Source: a virus. From it: DNA of 64,000 bases. Under the pieces are notes generated by a model that ran no database searches, was not told the DNA's origin, and saw only the letters and a list, made by a program, of their open reading frames with translations. Location: positions 1 to 64,000 of IMG/VR virus record IMGVR_UViG_3300009080_000001; one strand, given 5' to 3'. The position numbers and the translations under genes were made by a program. Within the stretch, counting starts at the first letter, position 1. Each line of letters starts with the position of its first letter. Below are positions 23,657-54,064 of the stretch, one piece after another.

Positions 23657-25558
23657 ATGAAATTGACTACTGATAACAAAACTGAAGACTTTGGACACAA
23701 GAAATTTAAGTTCAAGATCGACGAGAAACATGCCTTTAAAGCTATATGGGCATTGATTAATCTATATAAGTATAAGATCCAAACTCCAGTTCAAGAGGTT
23801 ATATCGAACGCTAGGGATGCCCACAGAGAAGTAGGCAAGCCAGATCATACTTTTGATATAAAGGTAACAGATACAGAGTTTATCGTTAGAGACTACGGTA
23901 GTGGTATTGATCCAGTAAAGGCTGAGAATATTTTTTGCTCTATTGGCGAGAGTACTAAGACAGGCGATAACGGTCAGACAGGCGGATTCGGTATTGGTGC
24001 AAAAAGTCCTCTAGCATACACTAAACAGTTTGAAATGATTAGTTATGTAGACGGTACTAAGTATCATTACTTCATTGCTAAAAATGGTGAAATGTTAGAT
24101 ATGAACTTAATCAGCACAGAGAGTACTAAAGCTAAAAACGGTACTAAGGTTATTATCCCTATTAAACAAAATACAGGATACTACAGAAACGAGTCTGATA
24201 AAAAGAGTTTTATTAAAGCAGTTGATAGGTGTTGTTATTTTTGGGAAAATAGACCTAATTTTAACCACGAAATAGAGCCTCTAAAGCTGTTTAAAATAAA
24301 AGGTAAGTCTAACTATGCGTTTCATAATGCAAACATCGTAGACGGCAATCTCGTAGTTGTGGACGGTATCCCTTATAATGCTAATACTAATCAATGGAAC
24401 TATAGCGGAAGTAGAGTAGCATTTTTCAATACTGGGGACTTAAGGATTCATGAGACTAGAGAAAGATTAGCAGATAATCCAGACGATAGTGCTTATAATA
24501 TGGATAAAGTTAATGAAGCAATGGATTATATTAAAAACCATATGGACGTTAAACTTAATGATTATATTGATAAAGATAGTATCTTTAAAAGTCTTAAAGT
24601 ATTAAGTGATTTTGCTATACCTTTTAATTATAGACATGGTAACTATCGGTTTAAAAACAGATTCATTGAGCTAGAGGGGTATGGTAAAAAATTCACTGTA
24701 TATACTTCTAAATCAGGTGGTAGGTATCCATATAATTATAGATATAGAAAAGAAGATCAAAGTAGACTGAACTATAATGTCGAGGTATTTTATGATAATA
24801 CCGGAGATAGTGTTCAAAAAGTTAGTCGTAGAGTAAAAGGTTACTTAACACAATTTGTTGAGAATAAAGAGAATAAAACTGTATATGTTACTACTAATAA
24901 ACAGATAGCTAATATTTTCGGAGCAAAAGACTTAAGTACTTTAGAAGTGCCGAAAGTTAATAGAACTGGAGTTAAAAAACAAAATGAGCAGATAACTATT
25001 ACAGAATTATATTGTTATGGTCAGAGTAGAATATATAAAAAACTTGATGATATTGTTAGTAAGTATATTTATTTAGGATTTAAAGAAGATATTAGTGAAA
25101 CAATGAGATCTTTTTTAGATAGAAAAGGATATAGAGTCTGTAAACTTTCAAAAGATAATATTGAAAAAGTTACAGGGCATGGAAAATTTACAGAGTATCA
25201 TAATTTTGTTGAAAATTACAAATTGACTCAAGATGAAATAGACGGTATTTATTATTCAAGTATCAGGAGATATAACTTTAATGTAAATTTTACAGAGTTA
25301 CTTGACAGTAAAATAAAAAGATACAAAGAAATTGCAGATCAATATAAAAGATGCGACAGTTATGGTGTGCCAGTTTCTCTTTATACAAAAGAAGTTGAGG
25401 CTACTATAGAAAAAATAAGTGCTGAGAACGCTGAGATTATCCATATAAAGGATTATATTAGCGGAGAGTACCCTATGTTAGGTCACGGCAAAGACGTTAA
25501 TACGGAGTATATCAACGCCATTTACAGCTATAGGAAAAATTTACATGGTGAAAAATAA
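23657..25558 (+). CDS. rIIA-like protein with HSP90/GHKL ATPase domain
   Basis: EVISNARDAH, DYGSGI, GGFGIGAKSP. Confidence 0.8.
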   Translation: MKLTTDNKTEDFGHKKFKFKIDEKHAFKAIWALINLYKYKIQTPVQEVISNARDAHREVGKPDHTFDIKVTDTEFIVRDYGSGIDPVKAENIFCSIGESTKTGDNGQTGGFGIGAKSPLAYTKQFEMISYVDGTKYHYFIAKNGEMLDMNLISTESTKAKNGTKVIIPIKQNTGYYRNESDKKSFIKAVDRCCYFWENRPNFNHEIEPLKLFKIKGKSNYAFHNANIVDGNLVVVDGIPYNANTNQWNYSGSRVAFFNTGDLRIHETRERLADNPDDSAYNMDKVNEAMDYIKNHMDVKLNDYIDKDSIFKSLKVLSDFAIPFNYRHGNYRFKNRFIELEGYGKKFTVYTSKSGGRYPYNYRYRKEDQSRLNYNVEVFYDNTGDSVQKVSRRVKGYLTQFVENKENKTVYVTTNKQIANIFGAKDLSTLEVPKVNRTGVKKQNEQITITELYCYGQSRIYKKLDDIVSKYIYLGFKEDISETMRSFLDRKGYRVCKLSKDNIEKVTGHGKFTEYHNFVENYKLTQDEIDGIYYSSIRRYNFNVNFTELLDSKIKRYKEIADQYKRCDSYGVPVSLYTKEVEATIEKISAENAEIIHIKDYISGEYPMLGHGKDVNTEYINAIYSYRKNLHGEK

Positions 25559-25636
25559 ATGTTGCGTAGAGTTAAAAAGTAGAGTATATTAATTATAGAA
25601 ACTAAGTTGTTCTTAACAAACAGGAGGATAGAACAT

Positions 25637-26818
25637 ATGAAACTAACACAAATACCACAAGCCGCAAAGGTTTGTTTCAAGAGTAAAGCAGCTACATTAT
25701 GCCTAGTAGGAGTATCTGGATCTGGTAAGACAAGTATCTGGGGACAAACTTATAAGGAACTAGGATTTGAAAATTATATTATCCTAAGACCTGCATTACT
25801 AGCTGATGCAGCAGATTTAATCGGTCTACCTGACTTTGAGATTATCGAGAAAGGTGGTAAGGCAGTTAAGACTACTGCATTTATGCGACCTAAATGGCTA
25901 CCTTTTGAAGGTGATAATTGTTTGATTGTTATTGATGAGATTAACAGAGCAACTAAGGACGTATCAAACGCATTGTTTGGACTGATTGAGTCGGAAGCCC
26001 CATTCATTGGTGAGTATAAACTTCCCGAAGGTTGTAAGGTAGTAGCAACGTGTAATCCGCCTACGGATAACTATGCAGGAGTACTAGACTTTGCAGATAG
26101 TGCATGGAGTTCAAGACTTAACTTTGTTAAGGTTGCACCAAGCTTAGAAACGTATACAAACTACGGTAGAGCTTCGGAAACTGTTAGTAACGTGATGTTA
26201 GACTTCCTAAATAAGAATGAAACTTTCTTTGGAACTAGCGGAGACTTTGATACTGATATGTTTTTTACAGACGATAGTGAAGTTAAAGAGACTAATACAA
26301 GATCATTCTCAAAGGCATCGGCTATTCACGATACTGCTAAAGAGTTAGGCGTTGATAGAAATGTTACTTTTGAGTTAATAAAAGGAGTCGTTGGTACGGA
26401 ATTTGCAACAGCATTTTTAAACTTTGCTGATACTTATAGTAATATCGTAACAGTTGATGATCTACTTACAGATCCAGAGGCGCATACTAGATTCGATTAT
26501 ACGGCTCTCAGTGGTATCGCTAAGGTACTTCAAGACCTTAAGCATAAGTTAGGTAAGGGCGAAGTTGAAGAGGCTCAGATCCCGAATATAGCCCCTTTCC
26601 TTAAGCAGATCCCATTAGATACTCTTAAGGGATTTGTAGTGTACTTAGTAAAGGAAAATAAGGACGAGAATGGTGCTTTAATGACGACATTCGCAGAAGC
26701 TTTAATTGACGATGATGAGATTAACGAGAAGTTAGACCTAGTTATGTCAGATGAAAGTACTGAGGAGCTTATTGATTCTGACGAATCTGGAGAGGAGTCT
26801 GAAAATGAAGATAACTAA
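25637..26818 (+). CDS. MoxR-like AAA+ ATPase
   Basis: GVSGSGKT, IVIDEINR, ATCNP, SRL arginine finger. Confidence 0.85.
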   Translation: MKLTQIPQAAKVCFKSKAATLCLVGVSGSGKTSIWGQTYKELGFENYIILRPALLADAADLIGLPDFEIIEKGGKAVKTTAFMRPKWLPFEGDNCLIVIDEINRATKDVSNALFGLIESEAPFIGEYKLPEGCKVVATCNPPTDNYAGVLDFADSAWSSRLNFVKVAPSLETYTNYGRASETVSNVMLDFLNKNETFFGTSGDFDTDMFFTDDSEVKETNTRSFSKASAIHDTAKELGVDRNVTFELIKGVVGTEFATAFLNFADTYSNIVTVDDLLTDPEAHTRFDYTALSGIAKVLQDLKHKLGKGEVEEAQIPNIAPFLKQIPLDTLKGFVVYLVKENKDENGALMTTFAEALIDDDEINEKLDLVMSDESTEELIDSDESGEESENEDN

Positions 26819-27053
26819 GACTGTAAATATTACACGGTATAACCATAATCGAAAGTTATATGCTAAAAAAGGTGAGATAAGTGATAATGGTCATTATGTA
26901 TCATTATCTGACTTAGAAGTTGAGATTAAGAAAGGTAATACAATAAACGTAACAGATGAGTTTGGAAATAATATGACTAACAAAGTACTACAAGGTATTG
27001 TTAGTAAAATGCAATTGAGTGACAGTGAGTTAGTGAAGTTAATTAAAGGTTAA
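26805..27053 (+). CDS. PhaR N-terminal-like DNA-binding protein
   Basis: ITRYNHNRKLY...YVSLSDL...GNNMTNKVLQGIV resembles the PhaR IKKYxNRRLY pattern. Confidence 0.6.
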   Translation: MKITKTVNITRYNHNRKLYAKKGEISDNGHYVSLSDLEVEIKKGNTINVTDEFGNNMTNKVLQGIVSKMQLSDSELVKLIKG

Positions 27054-27191
27054 TTCCTAGACCTAGCACAAGTCTTAAAACTGAATTTAGTCCAGTGACC
27101 AGACCGACGATAAACAGAGGAATTTCTTATGGGAGCTACGTTATTGGTCAATCCTGAGTATGATTTGAAACTGCTCTTTTTGGAGATAAAA

Positions 27192-27647
27192 ATGAAATAT
27201 AACAGCATGAAAAAACAAGCATTTAAAGATTGGAAACGAGGTACTAAAACTCCGCAATGGGCAAAGATAAATAAAAGGAAAAGAATATATGAACCAGAAT
27301 ATTACACAACCCTGAATAATTTACAGGGTACGTTGAATTTCCTTGACCATAAGTTTGATAAATGTAATTTAGAGAATCTTGGTAATTATATTTATGAGAT
27401 AAAAGATATTATAAAACCTAGACATATAGATAAAGAAGATTATTCAATGCAATATCAGATATATAATAGTGGTATATGGAATGTTTTTAGTAGTTACTAT
27501 AAGGACAAGACAGGTTACGGAGTACACTGGAAATTAGAGGAAGTTAACTATTCAAGATTAGCTGAGAAAATGTATAAGATAACAGAGAAAAATAAGTTAA
27601 AATGTTTAGGAGGAGTAAGGTGGTTAGTGTGGGTAAAAATTACATAG
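27192..27647 (+). CDS. TRLARK-box protein (divergent)
   Basis: VNYSRLAEKMYK; start revised by RBS. Confidence 0.6.
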   Translation: MKYNSMKKQAFKDWKRGTKTPQWAKINKRKRIYEPEYYTTLNNLQGTLNFLDHKFDKCNLENLGNYIYEIKDIIKPRHIDKEDYSMQYQIYNSGIWNVFSSYYKDKTGYGVHWKLEEVNYSRLAEKMYKITEKNKLKCLGGVRWLVWVKIT

Positions 27648-27728
27648 TGGTTGACAAATGATTTGCGTTATACTGTTACCTGTGTTATTATTAATTGTAC
27701 TTAAGTTATCGTATGGAGGATAAATAAA

Positions 27729-28976
27729 ATGAGTGAAGAAAAGAAACAACCAACAGCATTAGAAGTAGCACAAGGTAGAACTAGAATCGAGTTATTACTT
27801 ACGAAGTTATATAACCACCCGACAGATAGATTCTATGCACATTTATTCTTCCATGTAGATAGAAGAGTAGATAACGCAACGTGTCCAACAATGGGAGTTG
27901 GCATGAAAGGCGGAAGGATTCAGATGGTATATAATACTGAGTTCATTAAGCAATATAGTGACGAGGTTATTACTGAGATTCTTAAGCATGAATGTATGCA
28001 CCTTATTAACGATCATATTAGTAGAGGTAGAGGTGCTAAAGAGAAGAATATGACTAAGCACAAGATGGAAAATATTGCCCAAGATTGTGCTATTAATCAA
28101 TCGTTAAATGGTGCAATTATCAAGGAAATTGGTGGTGTAGATTTAGATAGCTTTAGGAAGCTCTTAACGCATCAACCAGAGGACTTTATACTTGAGGCAG
28201 GTATGACCTCAGATTATTATTATAAGCTCTTAGAACAGGAAAAGCAGGATCGTGAGGATGCAGGAGAAGGCGACCAAGAGCAAGGTGAAGGATCACTAGG
28301 TCAACAGCTAGGTGACTTAGAAATGGACGATCATGGTCAATTTGGAGAAATGGACGCATTAGATCAAGCTATGTTAGACGAAAAGATTAAGCAAGCTGCT
28401 GAGGACGCTAGAGCTAGTGGAGCAGGAAACCTACCAAGTGAAGTAGAGGAAATGTTAAAGCTTAGAAAGAAACCTAAAGAGAATTGGAAGAGGTTACTTA
28501 GACAATTTATTGGTGGTGGTGTTAGGTCTGATAAAAAGAAAACAAGAAGTAAACGTAATAGACGTTACGGGATTAAGTTTTCAGGAAACAAAAAGGACTA
28601 TGTTGCAAGGATATTAGTAGTACTAGATACATCAGGAAGTATGTACGGTGATAGAACTGACAAGGTACTGAATGAAATTTACGGTATCTGGAAAGCTAAC
28701 CCATCAACTAAGCTCGACATTGTTGAGTGTGATGCTCAGATCCAAGACGTATTTGAGTACGATGGTAAGGACAAATTTGCCATTACAGGGCGTGGAGGAA
28801 CTAACATGACTCCTGCATTAGAGTATGCTGATAAACACAAGTACGACGGTGTTATAATGCTTACAGACGGTGAATTTTGGGAGACTTTCAAGAATCATAA
28901 GACTCCTAGTTTATGGGTAATTGCAGGTAATCCAAGTTATACGTCGCCAATTGGTAAGACGGTACATTTAAAGTAG
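27729..28976 (+). CDS. Metallopeptidase-like + VWA domain protein (DUF2201 type)
   Basis: HECMH zinc motif; DTSGS MIDAS; GRGGT; LTDG. Confidence 0.85.
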   Translation: MSEEKKQPTALEVAQGRTRIELLLTKLYNHPTDRFYAHLFFHVDRRVDNATCPTMGVGMKGGRIQMVYNTEFIKQYSDEVITEILKHECMHLINDHISRGRGAKEKNMTKHKMENIAQDCAINQSLNGAIIKEIGGVDLDSFRKLLTHQPEDFILEAGMTSDYYYKLLEQEKQDREDAGEGDQEQGEGSLGQQLGDLEMDDHGQFGEMDALDQAMLDEKIKQAAEDARASGAGNLPSEVEEMLKLRKKPKENWKRLLRQFIGGGVRSDKKKTRSKRNRRYGIKFSGNKKDYVARILVVLDTSGSMYGDRTDKVLNEIYGIWKANPSTKLDIVECDAQIQDVFEYDGKDKFAITGRGGTNMTPALEYADKHKYDGVIMLTDGEFWETFKNHKTPSLWVIAGNPSYTSPIGKTVHLK

Positions 28977-30688: not shown

Positions 30689-30930
30689 TGTTAAAAGTCG
30701 GAGATTATGTTTCTATTAAACAGGGTAAAAATCTAAAAGGCGATAAAGTTGGTGTATTTAGAAAAGTTACTGAATATATTGGTAAGTATGATTTATATAA
30801 AATAGAAGGTACTGAAGGTTATCCTTATTTTGAAGACGAGTTAGACGTTTATACTAGAGTTAAGAATACAAGACTTGCAAGGAAAATGTATCCAAAAGCA
30901 GTTGAAGAAAATGGTTGGTTGTATATATGA
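30688..30930 (+). CDS. TRLARK-box protein
   Basis: LKVGD...VKNTRLARKMYP. Confidence 0.75.
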   Translation: MLKVGDYVSIKQGKNLKGDKVGVFRKVTEYIGKYDLYKIEGTEGYPYFEDELDVYTRVKNTRLARKMYPKAVEENGWLYI

Positions 30931-31370
30931 AGTACTATAAACTACAAAACTATATGAAACAAGCTGAGGTAATAGCTAAGAACTCTCCAGATACACAGAA
31001 ACAAGTAGGAGCAGTACTAGTTAAGATAGATGGCGGAGAAGTTATAGCACAAGGTTATAACGGATACGTAAGGAATACTATGACAGCATTGCCTACGACT
31101 AGACCAAAGAAGTATGAGTACATGATACATGCGGAAGAGAACGTGATATTAAACTGTGCTAGAAATGGCATTAGTACTAAAGACTGTTATTTAGTTTGCA
31201 CTTTAAGTCCATGTAAATCATGTATGAGGAGAATGAAGCAAGCAGGAATTTCAACTATTTACTTTAAAGAGAAGTACAAAGACTTCGAAGATCAGCTAAC
31301 TATGAAAGATTTACAAATAGAGTTGACGCAGGTGAAGGATTACTATAGAATAAAGTTGGAGGTTAAATGA
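30927..31370 (+). CDS. dCMP deaminase family protein
   Basis: VGAVLV, GYNG, HAEEN, PCKSC. Confidence 0.88.
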   Translation: MKYYKLQNYMKQAEVIAKNSPDTQKQVGAVLVKIDGGEVIAQGYNGYVRNTMTALPTTRPKKYEYMIHAEENVILNCARNGISTKDCYLVCTLSPCKSCMRRMKQAGISTIYFKEKYKDFEDQLTMKDLQIELTQVKDYYRIKLEVK

Positions 31371-34613: not shown

Positions 34614-35114
34614 ATGAGTAAAGAATTAACAAAGAAACTAGCAAAGATTCAGAGTACATTACATGCACCAAAGAATCAACGCAATAGTTTTGGAAACTAC
34701 AACTACCGAAGCTGTGAGGATATCTTAGAGGCTGTTAAACCGCTTCTGGGAGACTTAACACTAGTAATTGATGATGAGATACTACCTGCTTTAGATAGGG
34801 TTTATATCAAGGCTACAGCGACGATTTCAGATGGTGAGCATAATATATCAGTATCATCATATGCTAGAGAGTCAGACTCTAAGAAAGGTATGGATTCAGC
34901 ACAGTTAACAGGAGCTACAAGTTCATATGCTAGGAAGTACGCACTTAACGGATTGTTCTTGATTGACGATAATAAAGATGCAGATACTGATGAAGCTAAA
35001 GGTGGCAAGAAAGCTGCACCAAAGAAACCAGTAGCAGCAAGTTCAAGTAAAGATAGTTTTAGAAGACCAAAAAAGAAACAAGAGCCAACACAGGAGGCAT
35101 TTGATGACATCTAG
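34614..35114 (+). CDS. ERF-family ssDNA annealing protein
   Basis: APKNQRNSFGNYNYRSCEDI; GATSSYARKYALNGLF. Confidence 0.9.
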   Translation: MSKELTKKLAKIQSTLHAPKNQRNSFGNYNYRSCEDILEAVKPLLGDLTLVIDDEILPALDRVYIKATATISDGEHNISVSSYARESDSKKGMDSAQLTGATSSYARKYALNGLFLIDDNKDADTDEAKGGKKAAPKKPVAASSSKDSFRRPKKKQEPTQEAFDDI

Positions 35115-38250: not shown

Positions 38251-40173
38251 ATGATGGCTAAATACCACAGAGTATGTACGAGTTTAAAAGACAAAGGAAC
38301 ATTAATCCCAGAAGGGGCTGATTTAGACAAATATAAAGCAGGAGAAGCTTATATTTCAGCATATCAGTACAATGAAGATCACAAGAAGTTATTTGATAAA
38401 AACAAGTCAGTAGCGGGAATTACAGACGTTACTACAGATATAATCTACTTCGATTTAGATAATGAAGATATTGAAGTTGCAAGAAAAGATACTATTGAGG
38501 TTGTGAACCGATTGGCAAACTATGAGATTACCTCCAATCAAATCAAAACGTGCCTTTCAGGAAATAAGGGTTTTCACTTAGCCCTACACACAACTGAAAC
38601 ATTCACTCCAGAAGAAGCTAGGTCGTTAGCTATTAAATTAGCTGGCGATCTGGACTCTTTTGACTCAAGTATTTACAATGCTAACAGAATTATCAGGATT
38701 GAAGGAAGTGTCCATCCAAAGACCCAATTACGTAAAACAGAGCTTACATTTAAGGAGCTTCAGACGCTCAGTATTGGCGATATAAAGGACTTAGCTAAAG
38801 ACGAGTACGATTACCTTAAACCGTCTAAAATAGAGCCTATAGAGTCGTTTATGAAGCTTACAGAGAGTGTTATAAAGAAGGATAAAGCCGAGAATATTGA
38901 GACTACGGAAACGCTTGATTATTTGTCTAATCCGTACAAGTTACAGCCTTGGAAATTAGCATTATCTCAAGGATTCTTTCCAAATGGAAATAGAAGTAAT
39001 TCATTGATGATTTTAGGAGCTACTTTAAAGAATAAAGGGTTACTGAAAGAACAGTGTTATTATGCCCTGAAAGCAGCCGCTGATTTACAGTCAGATAGAT
39101 ATGGTAAAGATAAATTTAAGAAAGAGGAGATTTGGGAAAAGGTTATTGAGCAAATTTACAAAGCTACTTGGAATAATGGTAGTTACTCAGAAGATCACTT
39201 TCCAACTCAGTTACAAGCTTATTTTGAAGAGTTAGGGATACCTAGAAAGGAATATGCTGAGATAGCTAGTGATGTAGTTAGTATCGATGATAAGTTCGAT
39301 GATTTCGTTAATTATGCAACTAATATTGATGAACATACTATGACGTTTGGTATTCCAAGTTTAGATAATGCTTTAAAAGTTAGAAAGGGTCATTTAATCG
39401 GACTACTAGCCGGACCGGGAATTGGTAAGACTAGTTTCGCTATTACATTCTTAAATAACTGTTCTAAGCAAGGTTCTAAGTGCTTTTTCGGTTCATACGA
39501 TATGTATTCACTAAATGTTTACCAGAAACTAATACAAAGACATACAGGTTATACTGAAGATGAAATGTTCCAATTTTTCAAAGATAAAGATAAAAAGAAG
39601 ATTGAGGAATTTAGAGGAATCTTAAATACCGAGTATGAGAATGTATCATTCTGTTTTAAATCTGGACAATCAATTAGTGACCTTAAGAAGTCAATTGAGA
39701 TGAAAGAAGAAGAGATGGGTGAGAAGATGGGACTAGTTGTAATTGATTATTTAGAGCTAGTACAAGTTGATGTTGCAGATGCTACAGCTAAAAGTTTAGA
39801 AGCTGTTAACGGACTTAGAGAGATTGCTAATGAAGGAAGGGTAGTTGTAGTACTATTACAACCTAATAAGATTAGCTCTAAGCCAGATCAGCCGCTATTA
39901 AGCTATAATGCAGCAAAAGGTTCATCAATGGTAGCACAAGCAGTTACAGCTATGTTAACGTGTCATAGACCGGGCTATAGCTCAGAGAATCCAGAGAATG
40001 ATCTGTATTTCAGCGTTAATTGTGTTAAGAATCGTAATGGTGCTTTATTTCAAAGAGACTTCGGCTGGATAGGTAAGACCCAGACTATTTTCGAGATGGG
40101 AGATGATGAGAGATTTGCCTTGAATTTATTAAGAGATACTAAAAGGGACGCTGATGATGACGATGGTTATTAG
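38251..40173 (+). CDS. Primase (AEP/PrimPol-type)-DnaB-like helicase fusion
   Basis: YFDLD and SGNKGFH (AEP); AGPGIGKTS, VIDYL, VKNRNG (SF4 helicase). Confidence 0.85.
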   Translation: MMAKYHRVCTSLKDKGTLIPEGADLDKYKAGEAYISAYQYNEDHKKLFDKNKSVAGITDVTTDIIYFDLDNEDIEVARKDTIEVVNRLANYEITSNQIKTCLSGNKGFHLALHTTETFTPEEARSLAIKLAGDLDSFDSSIYNANRIIRIEGSVHPKTQLRKTELTFKELQTLSIGDIKDLAKDEYDYLKPSKIEPIESFMKLTESVIKKDKAENIETTETLDYLSNPYKLQPWKLALSQGFFPNGNRSNSLMILGATLKNKGLLKEQCYYALKAAADLQSDRYGKDKFKKEEIWEKVIEQIYKATWNNGSYSEDHFPTQLQAYFEELGIPRKEYAEIASDVVSIDDKFDDFVNYATNIDEHTMTFGIPSLDNALKVRKGHLIGLLAGPGIGKTSFAITFLNNCSKQGSKCFFGSYDMYSLNVYQKLIQRHTGYTEDEMFQFFKDKDKKKIEEFRGILNTEYENVSFCFKSGQSISDLKKSIEMKEEEMGEKMGLVVIDYLELVQVDVADATAKSLEAVNGLREIANEGRVVVVLLQPNKISSKPDQPLLSYNAAKGSSMVAQAVTAMLTCHRPGYSSENPENDLYFSVNCVKNRNGALFQRDFGWIGKTQTIFEMGDDERFALNLLRDTKRDADDDDGY

Positions 40174-40654: not shown

Positions 40655-40898
40655 AGTTGGGTGGAAATATGCTATTGAAGTAATTAGTGATAATTATACG
40701 TTTACCGTCACTAATTATGACGAAGTAGAAGGAAGAGTCTTCGGGATAGATGGATGCGGTATTGAAGACATTTGGAGCGTATCTACATTTCAAAAATACG
40801 CTACTCCTCTATATATAGAAGTTAAAGCAACAAGATTAGCACGTAAAATGTTCCCGAATGCTGAAGAAGAAAACGGAATGTTGATACTGGAGGAATAA
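40644..40898 (+). CDS. TRLARK-box protein
   Basis: VKATRLARKMFP. Confidence 0.75.
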   Translation: MEIKVGWKYAIEVISDNYTFTVTNYDEVEGRVFGIDGCGIEDIWSVSTFQKYATPLYIEVKATRLARKMFPNAEEENGMLILEE

Positions 40899-41307
40899 TG
40901 GATCTATTTAATGAAATGATGTTAACGTACACAGATATTAATTTAGATATCAGTAGGTTGAAAAAAGATGTTGAGAAATTAGATGATGATAGTCTAGTTG
41001 ATGAAGTTGGTTCATTAAGATATGCTATTGACGGTAAAGAGGCAGAAAAGATCGAGCATATTCTTTTCAAGAATTACTCAGAAGAAGTGTTAGATGAAGA
41101 GGATCTTAATTTCCTTAGAGATGTATATGTACTATATTATGCTGAATTTGCAATATTAATTGATACAGATGAAGATGACGAGTAGACATAAGGTTTATTT
41201 CGTTGTAGTAATACTGTCAGCAATTTACAGATTATATGAAAATGATATTGACGGATTTATACTTAGTATGTTAGTATTGAGTATATTTTGCTTAATACCA
41301 AGGAGGA

Positions 41308-41580
41308 ATGGTGAGTGAAAGTTGGGTTGGCAGGAAAGTAAGGTTTAAGAATTGGCCAGAGTGTATGTATTGGTATATAGAAAAGGAAGATTCTGGTAAT
41401 TATATCGGAACTGTATTTGCTCATAATAAAGTACAGGAAACTGAATTCAATATTACCAAGAGGTTTACACATAAACGATATTTTTTAATTGACACAAAAG
41501 TAAAGGACACCAGACTTGCACGTAAAATGTATCCAGATTTTAAGGAAACTGAAGATGGTTATTTATTAATAATGAGGTAA
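41308..41580 (+). CDS. TRLARK-box protein
   Basis: VKDTRLARKMYPDF. Confidence 0.75.
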   Translation: MVSESWVGRKVRFKNWPECMYWYIEKEDSGNYIGTVFAHNKVQETEFNITKRFTHKRYFLIDTKVKDTRLARKMYPDFKETEDGYLLIMR

Positions 41581-41582
41581 TA

Positions 41583-43955
41583 GTGAAAGAACGTAAACTA
41601 GTAATAGTTGATAATATAAAGAAATTAGCAGAAGCTATAACACATATAAATACTTACGATATATTAGCATACGATATAGAAACTACTGGACTTATTCCTA
41701 CTAAGGAAAAGGTTATAGGGTTCTCAGTATGCGGTAAAGTAGGTGAAGCATATTATATTCCACATTTAACTTGGGATACTACCAAAAATAAACTAGTCGA
41801 AGTATTCAGCTTCAGTAAAATATCCTCCATTTTAAATTCGTTAAAAGGTAAAGAGTTACTGATGTGGAACGGTAGTTTCGACGTTAGATTCACCAGAGAT
41901 TATTTCGATATAGACCTTACAGAAGAATTATTCGCAGATATTATGTTAATGAAACATACAGTAGAAGAAGAGGGTCAATTTAGCTTAAAAGGCTGTGCAA
42001 TCCAGTACCAAGAAGAGATTGGACTAGATGTAGCAGAAGACGCTAACAAAGAGCAGATAGCCTTAAAAGAGAACGTAGCTAAGAATGGCGGTACAACTAC
42101 TAGAGCTAAGTACGAGATGTATAAGGCTGATCTAGACGTTATGGGTGTGTATGCCGCAGCCGATGCAGACCTTACATTAAGACTTGCAAACCTATTCAGA
42201 GAAAAGCTTGAAAAAGAGGAATTAGAGGACTTCTTTTATGATGAAGAAGTTATGCCTTTATATAAGTATGTAACAATGACAATGGAATCTAATCCAGTAC
42301 AATTAGATATTGATAAACTTAAATACTACAAACATAAGATAGAGCAAGATATAGTTAAATTACATGATGCTATTGTTGCAGACTTATTAACAAGCGTTAA
42401 AGTACAAGCATGGTTAGAAGAAGTAGCTAAGACTAAATATCCGCCAAAACCTACTGGAAACTACGCTCAAAGAGTGGTAGAGAAATTCGGACTAGATTTA
42501 CCAAAATCAGCATCAGGGAAGTACAGTATTTCCAGAAAGAATGTTGAGAAATTACCAGATAGTGACGCTAAAAGCTTCTTATTAAAAGAGAGTAATATAG
42601 AGCCGGAATTTAAGGTAAAAGATACAAGGTTAGCACGTAAGATGTATCCGGGCTGTGTAGAGAAAGATGGTTGGTTAGTACCTGCTCAAGATATGTCAAG
42701 TATTTCAGTTGAATTATGGGAAGAACATAATGGTGGTAAAATCAATATCTCATCTAAAAAGCAAATGGGTGAAATAGTATTTAATTACATGAAAGTTAAG
42801 CCTTTAACTAAGACCTTAAAAGGTGCGCCACAATTTAACGATGCTTTAATTCAATATTTAGCTGATAATCAGTTTTCTTGGGCTAATGACCTTAGTGACT
42901 ACAATAAGCTAATTAAGATCAAGTCAGCATATATCGATAGATTCTTGGATAATAACCAAGATGGTAATTATTACTTTTATTACAAACAACATGGAACATT
43001 ATCAGGACGATATAGTTCTGACGCACAGCAGCTACCAAGACCTAAAGAAGATGGAGAACTATCACCATTAGTACTTGAATATAACAATGCTATTAGGTCG
43101 TTCTTTGTCGCTGGTGAAGGTCGTAAGTTTATTGATGCCGATTATGAGTCGTTAGAGCCACATGTATTTGCACATGTATCAGGTGATGATGGGTTGAGAA
43201 ATATCTTCCGTAAAGGTCATGATTTTTATAGTACTATTGCTATTCAAACAGAGAAGCTTGGGGAATTTAGTGCGGATAAGAAGTCCGAAAGTTACCTTGG
43301 GAAATTAAACAAACCATTACGCCAGAAGGCTAAGGCTTATAGTCTAGGCGTTCCATATGGCATGACACCTTATGCCCTAGCTAAGACATTAGAAGTGGAT
43401 GAGAAGGAAGCTAAGAAGCTATATGATGGGTATTTAGACGGGTTTCCAGAGCTTAAGAAGTGGATGCAGAAGAGTAAGAGAGATGCACAGTACAAAGGAT
43501 TCGTTAAGACGCAAACTGGACGTATTAGGCACTTAGATAGGGTTAAAGAGCTACATGCTGAACATGGTGAGAAATTACTTAATTTTAAATACCGTAAAAA
43601 GCTTGAAAAACAAGTAGCTAAGAAACTTGGTGGATTTGAAGCATCTAAAGAAGTTAAAGGTATGTACCTTGATTATAAGAATGGTATAAATAATAGCCGC
43701 AACTTTCAGATTCAAGGATTATCGGCTAGTATTGTAAATAAATCCATGATACTGATTATGCAGGATTTTAGGGACGAGAATATAGACGGTTACGTATGTG
43801 CAACAGTACATGATCAGATTATTGTTAACGTATCTGATTTAGATCTTGACAGAGCTATAGAAATAGTGCAATATAGAATGACAACGGTTGTTGAGCTATC
43901 AGTTGATCTGAAAGCTCCGCCAGAAATTAGCGATAATTTTAGAGATGGACATTAA
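41583..43955 (+). CDS. polA: DNA polymerase family A with 3'-5' exonuclease and internal TRLARK box
   Basis: DIETTG exo I; SGRYSS; DADYESLE motif A; KAKAYSLGVPYG motif B; HDQ motif C. Confidence 0.95.
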   Translation: MKERKLVIVDNIKKLAEAITHINTYDILAYDIETTGLIPTKEKVIGFSVCGKVGEAYYIPHLTWDTTKNKLVEVFSFSKISSILNSLKGKELLMWNGSFDVRFTRDYFDIDLTEELFADIMLMKHTVEEEGQFSLKGCAIQYQEEIGLDVAEDANKEQIALKENVAKNGGTTTRAKYEMYKADLDVMGVYAAADADLTLRLANLFREKLEKEELEDFFYDEEVMPLYKYVTMTMESNPVQLDIDKLKYYKHKIEQDIVKLHDAIVADLLTSVKVQAWLEEVAKTKYPPKPTGNYAQRVVEKFGLDLPKSASGKYSISRKNVEKLPDSDAKSFLLKESNIEPEFKVKDTRLARKMYPGCVEKDGWLVPAQDMSSISVELWEEHNGGKINISSKKQMGEIVFNYMKVKPLTKTLKGAPQFNDALIQYLADNQFSWANDLSDYNKLIKIKSAYIDRFLDNNQDGNYYFYYKQHGTLSGRYSSDAQQLPRPKEDGELSPLVLEYNNAIRSFFVAGEGRKFIDADYESLEPHVFAHVSGDDGLRNIFRKGHDFYSTIAIQTEKLGEFSADKKSESYLGKLNKPLRQKAKAYSLGVPYGMTPYALAKTLEVDEKEAKKLYDGYLDGFPELKKWMQKSKRDAQYKGFVKTQTGRIRHLDRVKELHAEHGEKLLNFKYRKKLEKQVAKKLGGFEASKEVKGMYLDYKNGINNSRNFQIQGLSASIVNKSMILIMQDFRDENIDGYVCATVHDQIIVNVSDLDLDRAIEIVQYRMTTVVELSVDLKAPPEISDNFRDGH

Positions 43956-43956
43956 T

Positions 43957-44511
43957 ATGGGTAAATTTTCAAGAAAAGAACAATGGAGTCTTATAGAGAA
44001 AGGTAAAAAAGGTTGTTCTGTTTGTGGTGATATTTTAGAATTAGATTGTTTTAGAAAAACTGGAAAAGTAAATAAACAAGGAATTGTAGGTTACAGAAGC
44101 AATTGCAGGTACTGTAAACACGTAGATCAGATGAGTAGAAAAGGACACAATCCTAGGAATAAAGATGATTTTTGGCATAGACATGGACTAAGAGATGAAG
44201 GGTTCATAGATAAAGCAGGAAAAGCAAGGAACTACGAAAGAGATAGAGTTAATTTTATAAGGAGAGTTTATAATGTTGACTTTAAAGAAGCTTTAGATTT
44301 ACATAAAAGATCACTACATGATACTTGTGAGATATGTGGAAAAGGGTTTGAAGACAACGGTAAAGCTCTAGCTGTAGATCACTGTCACAGTAACGGGCAT
44401 GTTAGAGGTATATTATGTGAAGTATGTAATAAAGGATTAGGACACTTTAAAGATAACGTAGATGTTATGAAAAATGCTATCAAATATTTAGAAGAAAAAA
44501 GGGAGAAATAA
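43957..44511 (+). CDS. Endonuclease VII-like HNH nuclease
   Basis: CEICG..LAVDHCH..VRGILCEVCNKGLG. Confidence 0.85.
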   Translation: MGKFSRKEQWSLIEKGKKGCSVCGDILELDCFRKTGKVNKQGIVGYRSNCRYCKHVDQMSRKGHNPRNKDDFWHRHGLRDEGFIDKAGKARNYERDRVNFIRRVYNVDFKEALDLHKRSLHDTCEICGKGFEDNGKALAVDHCHSNGHVRGILCEVCNKGLGHFKDNVDVMKNAIKYLEEKREK

Positions 44512-45550: not shown

Positions 45551-45849
45551 AGAAAGCGATGTGGATAAGTTATTCGTCCGATGAACATGAACCTAATTTT
45601 CCTTTTAATATTAATGATGTAATTAATGTTGAAGAGGATTTTGAAGCAGGATGGGCTAATGGTCTATGGGAGATTCTTGACGATGAAGGATTTAGTATTA
45701 GCTACGAGTATTCCGGAGAACTTCTAAACCAGTGTTACTTATATAAAGAACAATTACTTTTCGGAGTAAAATCAACACGACTAGCAAAGAAACTATATCC
45801 AAATGCTCCAGAAAAAGAGGGTATGTTATGGATCAAAGACGATGAGTAA
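45547..45849 (+). CDS. TRLARK-box protein
   Basis: VKSTRLAKKLYP. Confidence 0.75.
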   Translation: MKKAMWISYSSDEHEPNFPFNINDVINVEEDFEAGWANGLWEILDDEGFSISYEYSGELLNQCYLYKEQLLFGVKSTRLAKKLYPNAPEKEGMLWIKDDE

Positions 45850-46153
45850 ACCAGTATATTTCAAACTAGGTTCAACTGGTAAGATTTACCAAGCAGATAT
45901 CTGTAGAGATTACACAGTTGGCGTAGATTGGTCAGCTATGATCCAAGTAGTAGAATTTGACGACATATCTCAAGTACATCAAGACATATTTTCACATACA
46001 TATTTCAACAGAAATTACGCTAATGTTCGAGCAAGTTTATATCTTATATTAAAAGGTGACTTACTGTACGAATCTATCAAAGATACTAGATTAGCACGTA
46101 AGATGTATCCAGATGCTATCGAACATGAAGGTTGGTTGTTAATTGAAAGTTAG
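45842..46153 (+). CDS. TRLARK-box protein
   Basis: IKDTRLARKMYPD. Confidence 0.75.
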   Translation: MSKPVYFKLGSTGKIYQADICRDYTVGVDWSAMIQVVEFDDISQVHQDIFSHTYFNRNYANVRASLYLILKGDLLYESIKDTRLARKMYPDAIEHEGWLLIES

Positions 46154-48112: not shown

Positions 48113-48303
48113 TATGTTATTGTCTATACGGGACGATATCTATACTTACAGTAATTGTCCCGAAGAAGAAATAGATAAATTAGCCAACATTATACTTAAA
48201 AATATCGAGGATTATGGGATGAAACCTCCCGGAAGATGGTCCTCAGTACTAAGAGGGAATACTGCTAAAAGAGAGATAGCGAGATGTTCGTGGGAGGATG
48301 AAG

Positions 48304-48870
48304 ATGAGTAAAGATACTTTTAAAGAAAACTTGGAAATGTTCCACTCTAGTAATATACATATACCTTCAAGAAGTATATTATTATCTGGAGAAATTACAG
48401 TAGAAAAAAGAGATGAGTTTCTAAAGAATATATTAACACTTGATGAAAAGGGTCACGATATTATAGTATACCTATCTAGTGAAGGTGGTTACACAGATCA
48501 AGGTAAGTCGATATATGACTTGATTAAAACTAGAGATTCTAATATAAAAGGTATAGTACTAGATGAAGCTAGTTCAAGTGCAAGTTTTATACTCCAAGCT
48601 TGTGACGAAAGGATTATGTTTCCAAATAGTTACTTAATGGTACATATTGGAGAAGAGGCTACAGGTGGACATCCTAACACTAAGAAAGCTTGGGATAAGA
48701 AGTATGAAGAAGATACAAAGATAATGGAAGATATGTATTTAAAGAGGATTAAAGAAAAAAAACCAAGATATACAAGAAAACAGTTGCAAAACATGTTAAC
48801 TTTTGATACTATCTTGAATCCTAAGAAAGCAATTGAGCTTGGATTAGCAGATAAGGTATATGGTGATTAA
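48304..48870 (+). CDS. ClpP-like protease
   Basis: LSSEGG, ASSSAS (Ser), LMVH (His), AIELGLAD. Confidence 0.85.
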   Translation: MSKDTFKENLEMFHSSNIHIPSRSILLSGEITVEKRDEFLKNILTLDEKGHDIIVYLSSEGGYTDQGKSIYDLIKTRDSNIKGIVLDEASSSASFILQACDERIMFPNSYLMVHIGEEATGGHPNTKKAWDKKYEEDTKIMEDMYLKRIKEKKPRYTRKQLQNMLTFDTILNPKKAIELGLADKVYGD

Positions 48871-50718: not shown

Positions 50719-51053
50719 AAGGTTATATAAAGATAAAAGTACCAATGTATCGACAGAAAGGACTAGTTCCTGATATGTGGACATGTACTTATTATGAGAA
50801 ATTCCCGTACATTTATATGTCAGAAGACTTAACTCACTATTTAAGTAAATGGTTAGAAATTAAAGGTGTTAGATGTTCAGTAGGTGGTATGGTACATAGA
50901 GGATTTAGAACTCACTATATTATAGATAGAGATAAGATGATAACTAGAGTACGTGATACTAGATTAGCTAGGAAGGTATTAAAAGAGGACGAGATACTTA
51001 AAATTAAAGATGGTTGGATATATATGTTTAATGAGGAGGTTAGACTTGGCTAA
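50715..51053 (+). CDS. TRLARK-box protein
   Basis: VRDTRLARKVLK..DGWIY. Confidence 0.75.
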   Translation: MKGYIKIKVPMYRQKGLVPDMWTCTYYEKFPYIYMSEDLTHYLSKWLEIKGVRCSVGGMVHRGFRTHYIIDRDKMITRVRDTRLARKVLKEDEILKIKDGWIYMFNEEVRLG

Positions 51054-51438
51054 GAAACTAGATAAAGGTAAACCTAGAATGGATTTAATTAATCCAAGGT
51101 TTTTAGAGGAATTAGGAGAAGGATTAGGTTTCGGAGCTAGTAAGTACTCTGATTATAATTACAGAGAAGGTGAAGGTCTGGATAGATCGAGACTGTATGC
51201 ATCGGCAATGAGACATCTCTTAAAATATGCTAAAGGTGAAAAAATAGATGAAGAAAGTGACATTTCGCACTTGACCGCAGTAGCAATTAATTGTATGATG
51301 ATTTATACCCTTGAAGAAGAAAACAAGGGGACTGAGTATGACGCTTGGGTTATGGAGGAAACTGATGACACAAAAGAAAATCCCTCAAAAGAAGGATCTC
51401 AAAGACGAAAGGTTAAACAAGTTACAAAGAAGAGTTAA
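51046..51438 (+). CDS. dATP/dGTP diphosphohydrolase-like (DUF5664)
   Basis: KLDKGKPRMDL, GASKYSDYNY, AMRHL, DEESDISHL. Confidence 0.8.
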   Translation: MAKKLDKGKPRMDLINPRFLEELGEGLGFGASKYSDYNYREGEGLDRSRLYASAMRHLLKYAKGEKIDEESDISHLTAVAINCMMIYTLEEENKGTEYDAWVMEETDDTKENPSKEGSQRRKVKQVTKKS

Positions 51439-53299: not shown

Positions 53300-54064
53300 A
53301 TGAAGAAACTACTTTTAGCAATTATGCTACTACCAACACTGGCATTCGCCAATCTAAACACAATCAAACTTACTGATAAAAACACTATCAGTTTCAACGA
53401 ACAATTCAATGCAATGACTGTTGCAGCAAAACAAGCACAATTATTCGAATTAGCATCTAGTTCACAAGAAAAGGACTTATATATAGTTATGTATACTCCC
53501 GGTGGCTCAGTATCTGCTGGAGCTTTATTTATCGATACAGCAAGAGCATTAGGTAAGAACATTCACACAATCACTATTTTCAGCGCATCTATGGGCTACC
53601 ACACCGTTCAAGGACTTGGCAAGAGGTATATTCTACCATCTGGGGTTCTAATGTCTCACAGAGCTTATGTAAGCGGATTACAGGGTCAATTTCCGGGTGA
53701 ACTAAATCAAAGAGTTGAGATGCTTATGAAGTCTACTGAAGACCTTGATAAGATTGCTGCTGCTAGAGTTGGTTTAAGTCTTAAGGAATACAAATCTACT
53801 ATTCACGATGAACTATGGTTAACTGGTGCTGATGCTGTTAAAAGAGGTCATGCTGATGAAGTTGTACAAGCTATCTGTGGAGAAAGTCTAAGTGGATTAT
53901 ACGAGAAAGTATTTAACACATTCTTTGGACCAGTTATTGTTGAATTTGCTAATTGTCCATTAATTGTAGGACCAGTTAATATCAAAGGATCAAACGAAGC
54001 AATTATGGAAGTTAAAAAGAACATCCTAGACGATGTAACTAAAAAGGTTAAAACACTACTATAA
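53300..54064 (+). CDS. ClpP-like protease with signal peptide
   Basis: MKKLLLAIMLLPTLAFA; TPGGSV, SASMG, LMSH; TTGACA at 53245. Confidence 0.8.
   Translation: MKKLLLAIMLLPTLAFANLNTIKLTDKNTISFNEQFNAMTVAAKQAQLFELASSSQEKDLYIVMYTPGGSVSAGALFIDTARALGKNIHTITIFSASMGYHTVQGLGKRYILPSGVLMSHRAYVSGLQGQFPGELNQRVEMLMKSTEDLDKIAAARVGLSLKEYKSTIHDELWLTGADAVKRGHADEVVQAICGESLSGLYEKVFNTFFGPVIVEFANCPLIVGPVNIKGSNEAIMEVKKNILDDVTKKVKTLL

Follow-up and report, generated by a model that had tools for sequence, protein, structure and literature searches.

Thumb-tip insertions are a known means by which family A DNA polymerases have acquired partners, the known cases being T7 polymerase, which binds thioredoxin, and Pol gamma, which binds its accessory subunit. 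In this study, we analyzed the family A DNA polymerase gene of an uncultured marine phage, located at 41583..43955 (+) of a 64,000-nucleotide window (positions 1 to 64,000 of IMG/VR record IMGVR_UViG_3300009080_000001), and a short element, hereafter the TRLARK box, that lies in frame in the thumb of the encoded enzyme. The thioredoxin-binding domain of T7 polymerase is placed between helices H and H1, at the thumb's tip (PMC11339088, PMC10201439), and varied thumb-tip insertions are common in family A polymerases (PMC10201439). Like the insertion described here, the thumb insertion found in phiKMV-like polymerases and Pol gamma's accessory-interacting determinant are ordered and lineage-specific; theirs serve presumed or known contacts (PMC10201439). 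We show that the TRLARK box is a lineage-specific mini-module of ~26 residues, inserted once and in frame into an older thumb-tip insertion in the phage from which a small group of uncultured marine phages descends, and that selection constrains the polymerase copy at the peptide level in the same way as the copies carried by ~25 small early proteins, including a concerted change of two residues.

The window corresponds to the first 64 kb of a complete virus record of 84,758 bp with direct terminal repeats and 34% G+C. The polymerase gene starts with GTG and encodes 790 amino acids (aa), with both the 3'-5' exonuclease and the polymerase domains intact. Its translation matches PHROG 17 as well as Pfam PF00476 (DNA_pol_A; residues 369-787, E = 1e-61, 209 bits against a cut-off of 34.3) and PF01612 (DNA_pol_A_exo1; residues 7-210, E = 2e-9, 38 bits against a cut-off of 23.6). 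Motifs Exo I to III (DIETTG, NGSFD, and YAAADAD) and polymerase motifs A, B, and C (DADYESLEP, RQKAKAYSLGVPYG, and VHDQ) are present in the translation and invariant in the alignment of related polymerases. The AlphaFold2 model, built from 24 homologues, reached a mean predicted local distance difference test (pLDDT) score of 90.2, and Foldseek related it to Klenow, Bst, and phage G20c Pol I (E ~1e-30, target template modeling scores of 0.75-0.86). Judged from its motifs and predicted structure, the product of this open reading frame (ORF) belongs to the family A DNA polymerases and has a proofreading exonuclease domain.

In the model, thumb helix H spans residues 243-268 (42309..42386, +; assigned by DSSP) and is collinear with what we take to be the corresponding Klenow segment of Escherichia coli Pol I, GVKID...KKAHEIAG. 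It is followed by a mostly helical insertion of residues 269-387 (42387..42743, +), delimited by secondary structure and by the alignment of 24 polymerases with that of Flavobacterium phage immuto, then by helix H1 (residues 392-402, SSKKQMGEIVF; 42756..42788, +; DSSP) and by helix I (residues 432-456; 42876..42950, +; DSSP), which closes the thumb hairpin. The segment between helices H and I forms the far end of this hairpin in the model, and phmmer alignments of the polymerase to Klenow and Bst resume at query residues 370-381. The box itself occupies residues 343-367 (42609..42683, +), with a profile match of 58.3 bits (E = 5e-17). A previous sequence-only reading of this DNA had placed it at 42615-42680 (+), i.e., V345 to V366 of the 790-aa ORF with its D at residue 347, within a long insertion between the MESNPVQLD helix and the INISSKKQ motif. 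This location was correct, but the box makes up only ~26 of the ~119 inserted residues, the remaining ~88 being an older insertion common to the whole polymerase subfamily and also found in the immuto polymerase.

The same reading had equated this site with the position of the T7 thioredoxin-binding domain, and the topology agrees, since the insertion lies between helices H (243-268) and H1 (392-402) of the AlphaFold2 model. As in the gp5 polymerases of T7 and T3, it thus interrupts the thumb of a phage family A replicative polymerase between H and H1, where it would be placed for contact with the exiting duplex or with replisome partners. Unlike the T7/T3 domain, to which it has no detectable sequence similarity (a phmmer search of all Protein Data Bank chain sequences, taken to include T7 gp5, with residues 269-387 returned nothing at E <= 10), the insertion is composite, with a helical part of ~88 residues and the 26-residue box, and the box occurs on ~25 other proteins of the phage, whereas the T7 domain is not reused in this manner. 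The resemblance to the thioredoxin-binding domain is one of position only. The phiKMV insertion differs in another way, as a beta-rich arm of ~100 residues located after helix H1 (PMC10201439), and, like the Pol gamma determinant, it does not recur as a module on other proteins of a proteome. The insertion belongs to a known kind, the accessory insertions that family A polymerases carry at the thumb tip; what is unusual is that the inserted unit is a tag found across the early proteome of the phage.

The sequence-only reading had proposed aligning related polymerases to look for clean presence or absence of the box, and such a pattern was obtained with 24 polymerases drawn from a collection of 5.8 billion proteins. 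The box is found at one and the same site in all of the nine closest polymerases (73-91% identical overall); the more distant ones, including that of the cultured phage immuto (45% identical) and those of many metagenomic loci, keep the ~88-residue insertion and lack exactly the ~26 residues of the box. In the maximum-likelihood tree, the box-bearing polymerases and one box-less polymerase, L012, form a clade with 100/100 support, which therefore argues for a single gain, and all 27 other polymerases keep the surrounding insertion without the box. Within the nine box-bearing polymerases (76% identical overall as a set), K344, T348, L350, P356, L365, and D370 do not vary, A351 and G363 are conserved in eight, and pairwise identity reaches 73% in the box core compared to 57-63% in the flanks of the insertion. 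The copy studied here has the family-defining residues T348, L350, A351, P356, and G363 together with its significant profile match. Moreover, near-identical DNA with an intact box was found in several marine metagenome runs, no RNA run being listed among those that hold it, and the contigs of four marine runs that cross the box displayed neither indels nor a box-less variant. The conservation among the nine polymerases shows purifying selection on the polymerase box at the peptide level.

It could be argued that the box is a tolerated passenger, i.e., a self-folding unit that landed once in a permissive thumb loop and persists there because it is harmless, with no role of its own in the polymerase. 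The site was already a variable insertion, varied insertions at the thumb tip are common in the family (PMC10201439), and a phage of the same clade harbors a natural recombinant polymerase without the box, as detailed below. However, a neutral unit would not be expected to keep its family-defining residues in nine diverged polymerases, nor to have a core better conserved than its flanks, and we consider this explanation unlikely.

The copies of the box in the genome were counted with a strict motif, T-R-[LIVM]-A-[RK]-K, in the six-frame translation of the 84,758 bp, against a background of 100 dinucleotide-preserving shuffles. The genome contains 19 strict copies, all on the + strand, compared to 0.05 on average and at most 1 in the shuffles, and the box profile retrieved 26 copies at E <= 0.01, again all on the + strand and located between 12.9 and 55.3 kb, i.e., in the early and replication arm. 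Most of them lie 20-25 residues ahead of a stop codon, three are found close to N-termini (13063, 15097, and 53046), and the polymerase copy is the sole one deep within a long protein of this genome. The view that the box is not simply a C-terminal degron, drawn earlier from its internal position in the polymerase, is thus extended by these three N-terminal genes.

The core codons of the 19 strict copies have invariant first and second positions and a variable third position, arginine being encoded by AGG, AGA, CGA, or CGT and leucine by CTC, CTG, TTA, CTA, or CTT. Because the first two codon positions are fixed while the third varies, conservation acts on the peptide and not on a DNA repeat. 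The DNA-level conservation, third positions included, that would characterize a mobile in-frame DNA element was not observed, and the insert is only 26 residues long. Hence, the suggestion that the box marks a mobile coding module holds for one ancient insertion, but not for a DNA-level repeat or for recent movement, of which we saw no sign. The core of the polymerase box (42618-42649) differs at 2/32 bases from that of the ORF at 45803-46153 (46079-46110), and because of this similarity metagenome contigs of the latter paralogue cross-map onto the polymerase; the similarity is compatible with a shared codon preference rather than with recent gene conversion. Neither Pfam nor PHROGs gave a family for any of the box-bearing small ORFs, and Pfam searches with 24 box segments at E <= 10 returned only two single weak matches. 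A likeness to the helix-plus-wing of lambda Xis-type excisionases found no support in the search with these 24 segments.

Beyond this genome, a profile search of 1.84 billion cluster representatives yielded 246 clusters at E <= 0.001, of which the best 149 were analyzed. Among these 149 representatives, 148 profile matches were distributed as 136 C-terminal, 9 N-terminal, and 3 internal to small proteins, and the polymerase cluster was the only real long carrier, another long hit being an unrelated immunoglobulin-repeat protein. The non-box parts of 163 small box proteins (from the 149 representatives and the ORFs of the genome itself) fell into 88 groups unlinked by BLAST; the box thus behaves as a modular unit reused across many unrelated proteins. 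A second search limited to longer proteins added T4 endonuclease V-like glycosylases followed by a barrel and a C-terminal box, and the polymerase and these glycosylases are the only long proteins on which the box was found. Two such relatives from outside the window, P0048 and P0195, are fusion proteins of 219 aa, in which a T4 endonuclease V-like pyrimidine-dimer glycosylase is joined to an SH3-like barrel, with the TRLARK box at the C-terminus. On the contig that encodes the L012 polymerase, ORF 315-785 (156 aa) looks glycosylase-like by eye and precedes a barrel-plus-box ORF. Three complete genomes with box-less polymerases had no boxes in the search that scores 26 in the genome studied here. 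A back-translated box pattern gave one match in IMG/VR, in a giant-virus bin, which we took as chance, a tblastn search of 50,697 GenBank phage records with a box segment yielded no match with an E-value under 5, and the motif was not found in the literature in any relevant context.

The box is predicted to fold in the same way on different carriers. In the polymerase model, it comprises a strand (345-346), a helix (349-354), and a hairpin (359-361 / 364-366), with a pLDDT of 67-78, and in the model of an 80-aa box protein the C-terminal box comprises a strand (57-59), a helix (62-67), and a hairpin (72-74 / 77-79), with a pLDDT of 91-95. Both models thus show a common strand-helix-hairpin mini-fold. 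Residues 1-56 of the 80-aa protein are a predicted KOW/SH3/Tudor-like barrel (VIA-align wide search, Z <= 7.5), and this search carried no information on the box region. Positions 2 and 6 of the box (R2 and K6 in TRLARK) are one helical turn apart on the predicted helix and lie on the face opposite the conserved L, M, and Y residues.

These two positions vary together in a sub-lineage of the clade. The L012 polymerase (L012:10001-12286) is encoded on a 39.5-kb marine metagenome contig whose phage has at least 10 boxes on small ORFs despite its box-less polymerase. In all 10 L012 boxes, position 2 is E or D and position 6 is F or Y (T-E-L-A-R-F versus T-R-L-A-R-K), with mixed codons at both positions (GAA or GAT at position 2; TTT, TTC, or TAT at position 6), and at least six of the boxes are in genes syntenic with R2/K6 box genes of the window. 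In the genome of the window, F or Y at position 6 was seen neither among the 19 strict copies nor among the divergent copies that were read. Among the best 149 of the 246 cluster representatives, F at position 6 is found only together with E at position 2 (9/9), and three E/K forms look like intermediates. The box-bearing polymerase P0005, to which L012 is sister with 100/100 support, has the box T-D-L-S-K-F, i.e., the same two changes, compared to T-R-L-A-[RK]-[KR] in the eight other box-bearing polymerases, and it is placed in the L012 lineage because it is near-identical to L012. As these comparisons show, one surface patch has changed in concert in every copy seen of this sub-lineage, including its sister polymerase. 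Because of this concerted change, which is the strongest indication that we have, the polymerase box is probably under the same functional constraint as the other boxes, and since it is one surface patch that changed, this constraint would concern an interface rather than folding alone. Were the polymerase copy a neutral passenger, there would be no reason for P0005 to share the replacement of R2 and K6 by D and F with the small proteins.

The concerted change also bears on direct DNA contact, which the sequence-only reading had put forward beside the recruitment of a partner. In such a case, a basic helix at the thumb tip would contact the emerging duplex and raise processivity free of any partner. 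The position shared with the T7 thioredoxin-binding domain and the basic surface of the consensus box (K at -2, R2, R5, and K6) are both in line with this mechanism, as are the absence of thioredoxin and beta clamp genes, which were looked for in the phage genome, and the fact that the other box-carrying enzyme, the glycosylase, also acts on DNA. However, replacement of the two exposed basic residues, R2 by E/D and K6 by F/Y, in 10/10 L012 copies and in the sister polymerase removes two positive charges throughout one sub-lineage, and box carriers include small barrels with no evident link to DNA. Direct DNA binding by the box is thus less likely than it had appeared, and we regard it as quite improbable. 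Self-association of the boxes, joining the polymerase and the small proteins in one network or compartment, is a further candidate, and a concerted change in every copy is what a self-complementary interface would need. Nevertheless, this idea is without positive evidence, no separate observation pointing to oligomers, and its probability is in our opinion very small.

The absence of the box from L012 could be traced to a limited part of the protein. L012 and P0005 are 92-100% identical outside alignment columns ~240-420 and only 52-67% identical inside, and this mosaic stretch of ~170 thumb residues in L012 is closest to the box-less outgroup (P0010 and L013, 62-74%). The simplest reading of these identities would be a recombinational swap of the whole thumb cassette, while some residual likelihood must be left to a chimera of the metagenome assembly. 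Because the L012 polymerase is without the box while the phage keeps at least 10 elsewhere, the polymerase box appears dispensable in the L012 background, and the existence of this natural recombinant argues for an accessory rather than a catalytic role. In the window, the polymerase gene is directly followed by an endonuclease VII-like gene (43945..44511, +; Pfam PF02945, E = 4e-20). L012 has no such gene after its polymerase, the slot being occupied by a 116-aa ORF with an internal box (L012:12271-12621). This ORF was considered as a "rescued" polymerase box and rejected, as the existence of an R2/K6-type relative, P0159, indicates an old gene. A nuclease located beside a polymerase with a cassette swap may bear on the origin of the swap.

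Based on the single gain, the conservation, and the concerted change, we propose that the box is an exposed docking unit through which the polymerase and the small early proteins would share one putative partner, encoded by the phage or by its host, a proposal that we favor tentatively and with a confidence somewhat short of even. According to this model, the common ancestor of the clade would have gained the box once, in frame, at the thumb tip between helices H and H1. The binding site created by the box would lie at the place that in T7 polymerase receives thioredoxin as well as the acidic tails of the helicase and of the single-stranded DNA-binding protein (SSB), and the common putative partner would link the polymerase with the small early box proteins.

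Several points weigh against this docking model, as follows: (i) no partner was found by the hub-gene screen, among the proteins with acidic tails, or in the search for thioredoxin and beta clamp genes; (ii) docking of the polymerase is apparently not required in the L012 lineage, as the polymerase box was lost there while the other boxes stayed; (iii) the co-variation argument leans on P0005, whose lineage is inferred from its near-identity to L012; (iv) the concerted change could stem from gene conversion among copies rather than from co-evolution with a partner; and (v) the box is modeled in the polymerase with no more than a moderate pLDDT. The hub-gene screen, for genes found in the window and in L012 and absent from box-less loci, retrieved only small unannotated ORFs, with no clear candidate.

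As for the acidic tails, the primase-helicase has one with a terminal aromatic residue, DADDDDGY (40120-40173), and the ERF-family annealing protein ends in FDDI (35060-35114), both being conserved in L012. These tails are reminiscent of those of T7 gp4, T7 gp2.5, and SSB. A partner with an acidic tail of this type was rejected, because both tails are essentially unchanged in the E2/F6 lineage, with no co-variation matching that of the box.

With clamp-binding motifs such as the PIP box and with the partners of the SSB C-terminal tail, the TRLARK box shares the property of being a small element, C-terminal or internal, that is carried by polymerases, repair glycosylases, and other proteins and would link them to one hub. 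It differs from clamp-binding motifs, which are linear peptides of 5-8 residues, in being a predicted folded unit of 24-28 residues in a phage with no clamp gene, and from docking of the SSB-tail type in that the acidic helicase-primase and ERF tails are the same in both box lineages. Tags can also serve as adaptors between variable domains and one machine, e.g., the ClpX-binding tail of SspB and the PRANC / F-box of poxvirus ankyrin proteins, and the box resembles them in being a constant small module on many unrelated variable domains of one genome.

In a turnover or delivery reading, the box would be recognized by a protease system of the host or of the phage, either timing the removal of early proteins or delivering cargo, with the polymerase as a client. 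Such a reading stays alive because the early arm, to which the tag is confined, encodes ClpP-like, MoxR-type, and VWA/metallopeptidase proteins. The two ClpP-like protease genes (48298-48870 and 53300-54064) are in the early/replication arm rather than in the head module, and the first is directly flanked by box-bearing ORFs and encodes one of the least conserved enzymes between the two box lineages (52% identity). Nevertheless, both ClpP-like genes are also present in box-free relatives, a degradation tag within a replicative polymerase is hard to rationalize, and the box is predicted to be folded and not a disordered degron; we thus give turnover or delivery little credit. The L012 homologue of the ClpP-like protein of 53300-54064 has a signal-peptide-like stretch at its N-terminus. 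The block at 23657-28976 codes for a 633-aa GHKL-type ATPase (HATPase_c_3), a MoxR-like AAA+ protein (AAA_5), and a protein with putative metallopeptidase and VWA domains (DUF2201_N and DUF2201), and it includes a divergent box ORF (27129-27647).

The polymerase does not have the inserted piece to itself, since the same phage tags ~25 other early proteins and its relatives tag a DNA repair glycosylase. A bolder version of the docking model, which we find doubtful, would see the box as the address label of an undescribed phage system bringing a quarter of the early proteome, the repair glycosylase, and the polymerase onto one hub (a replication compartment, a scaffold, or a protease), the thumb-tip tag replacing the binding domain of a conventional processivity factor and the switch from R2/K6 to E/F reflecting co-evolution with the hub. 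If all copies do answer to one partner, they would represent a simple case, amenable to genetics, in which a virus has made its polymerase part of a docking network that spans the proteome. The partner question is directly testable thanks to two natural controls, namely the box-less cassette in the otherwise ~98% identical L012 polymerase and the sub-lineage in which two surface residues of the tag are altered in every copy seen.

Other genes of the window deserve mention. Of the two genes at 51010-51438 and 30915-31370, one matches the dATP/dGTP diphosphohydrolase N-terminal domain (PF18909) and another is a dCMP deaminase. PF18909 is known from phages with 2-aminoadenine genomes, and a PurZ-like adenylosuccinate synthetase was looked for in the phage genome and is absent. 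Two genes upstream of the polymerase, 40898-41185 encodes a very acidic protein of 95 aa, which was not found in box-free loci and is present in L012 (54% identity) and in L033. The 90-aa ORF directly upstream of the polymerase (41308..41580, +), for which an ESM Atlas search returned no named relatives, carries a C-terminal TRLARK box and is one of the ~25 small box-bearing early genes.

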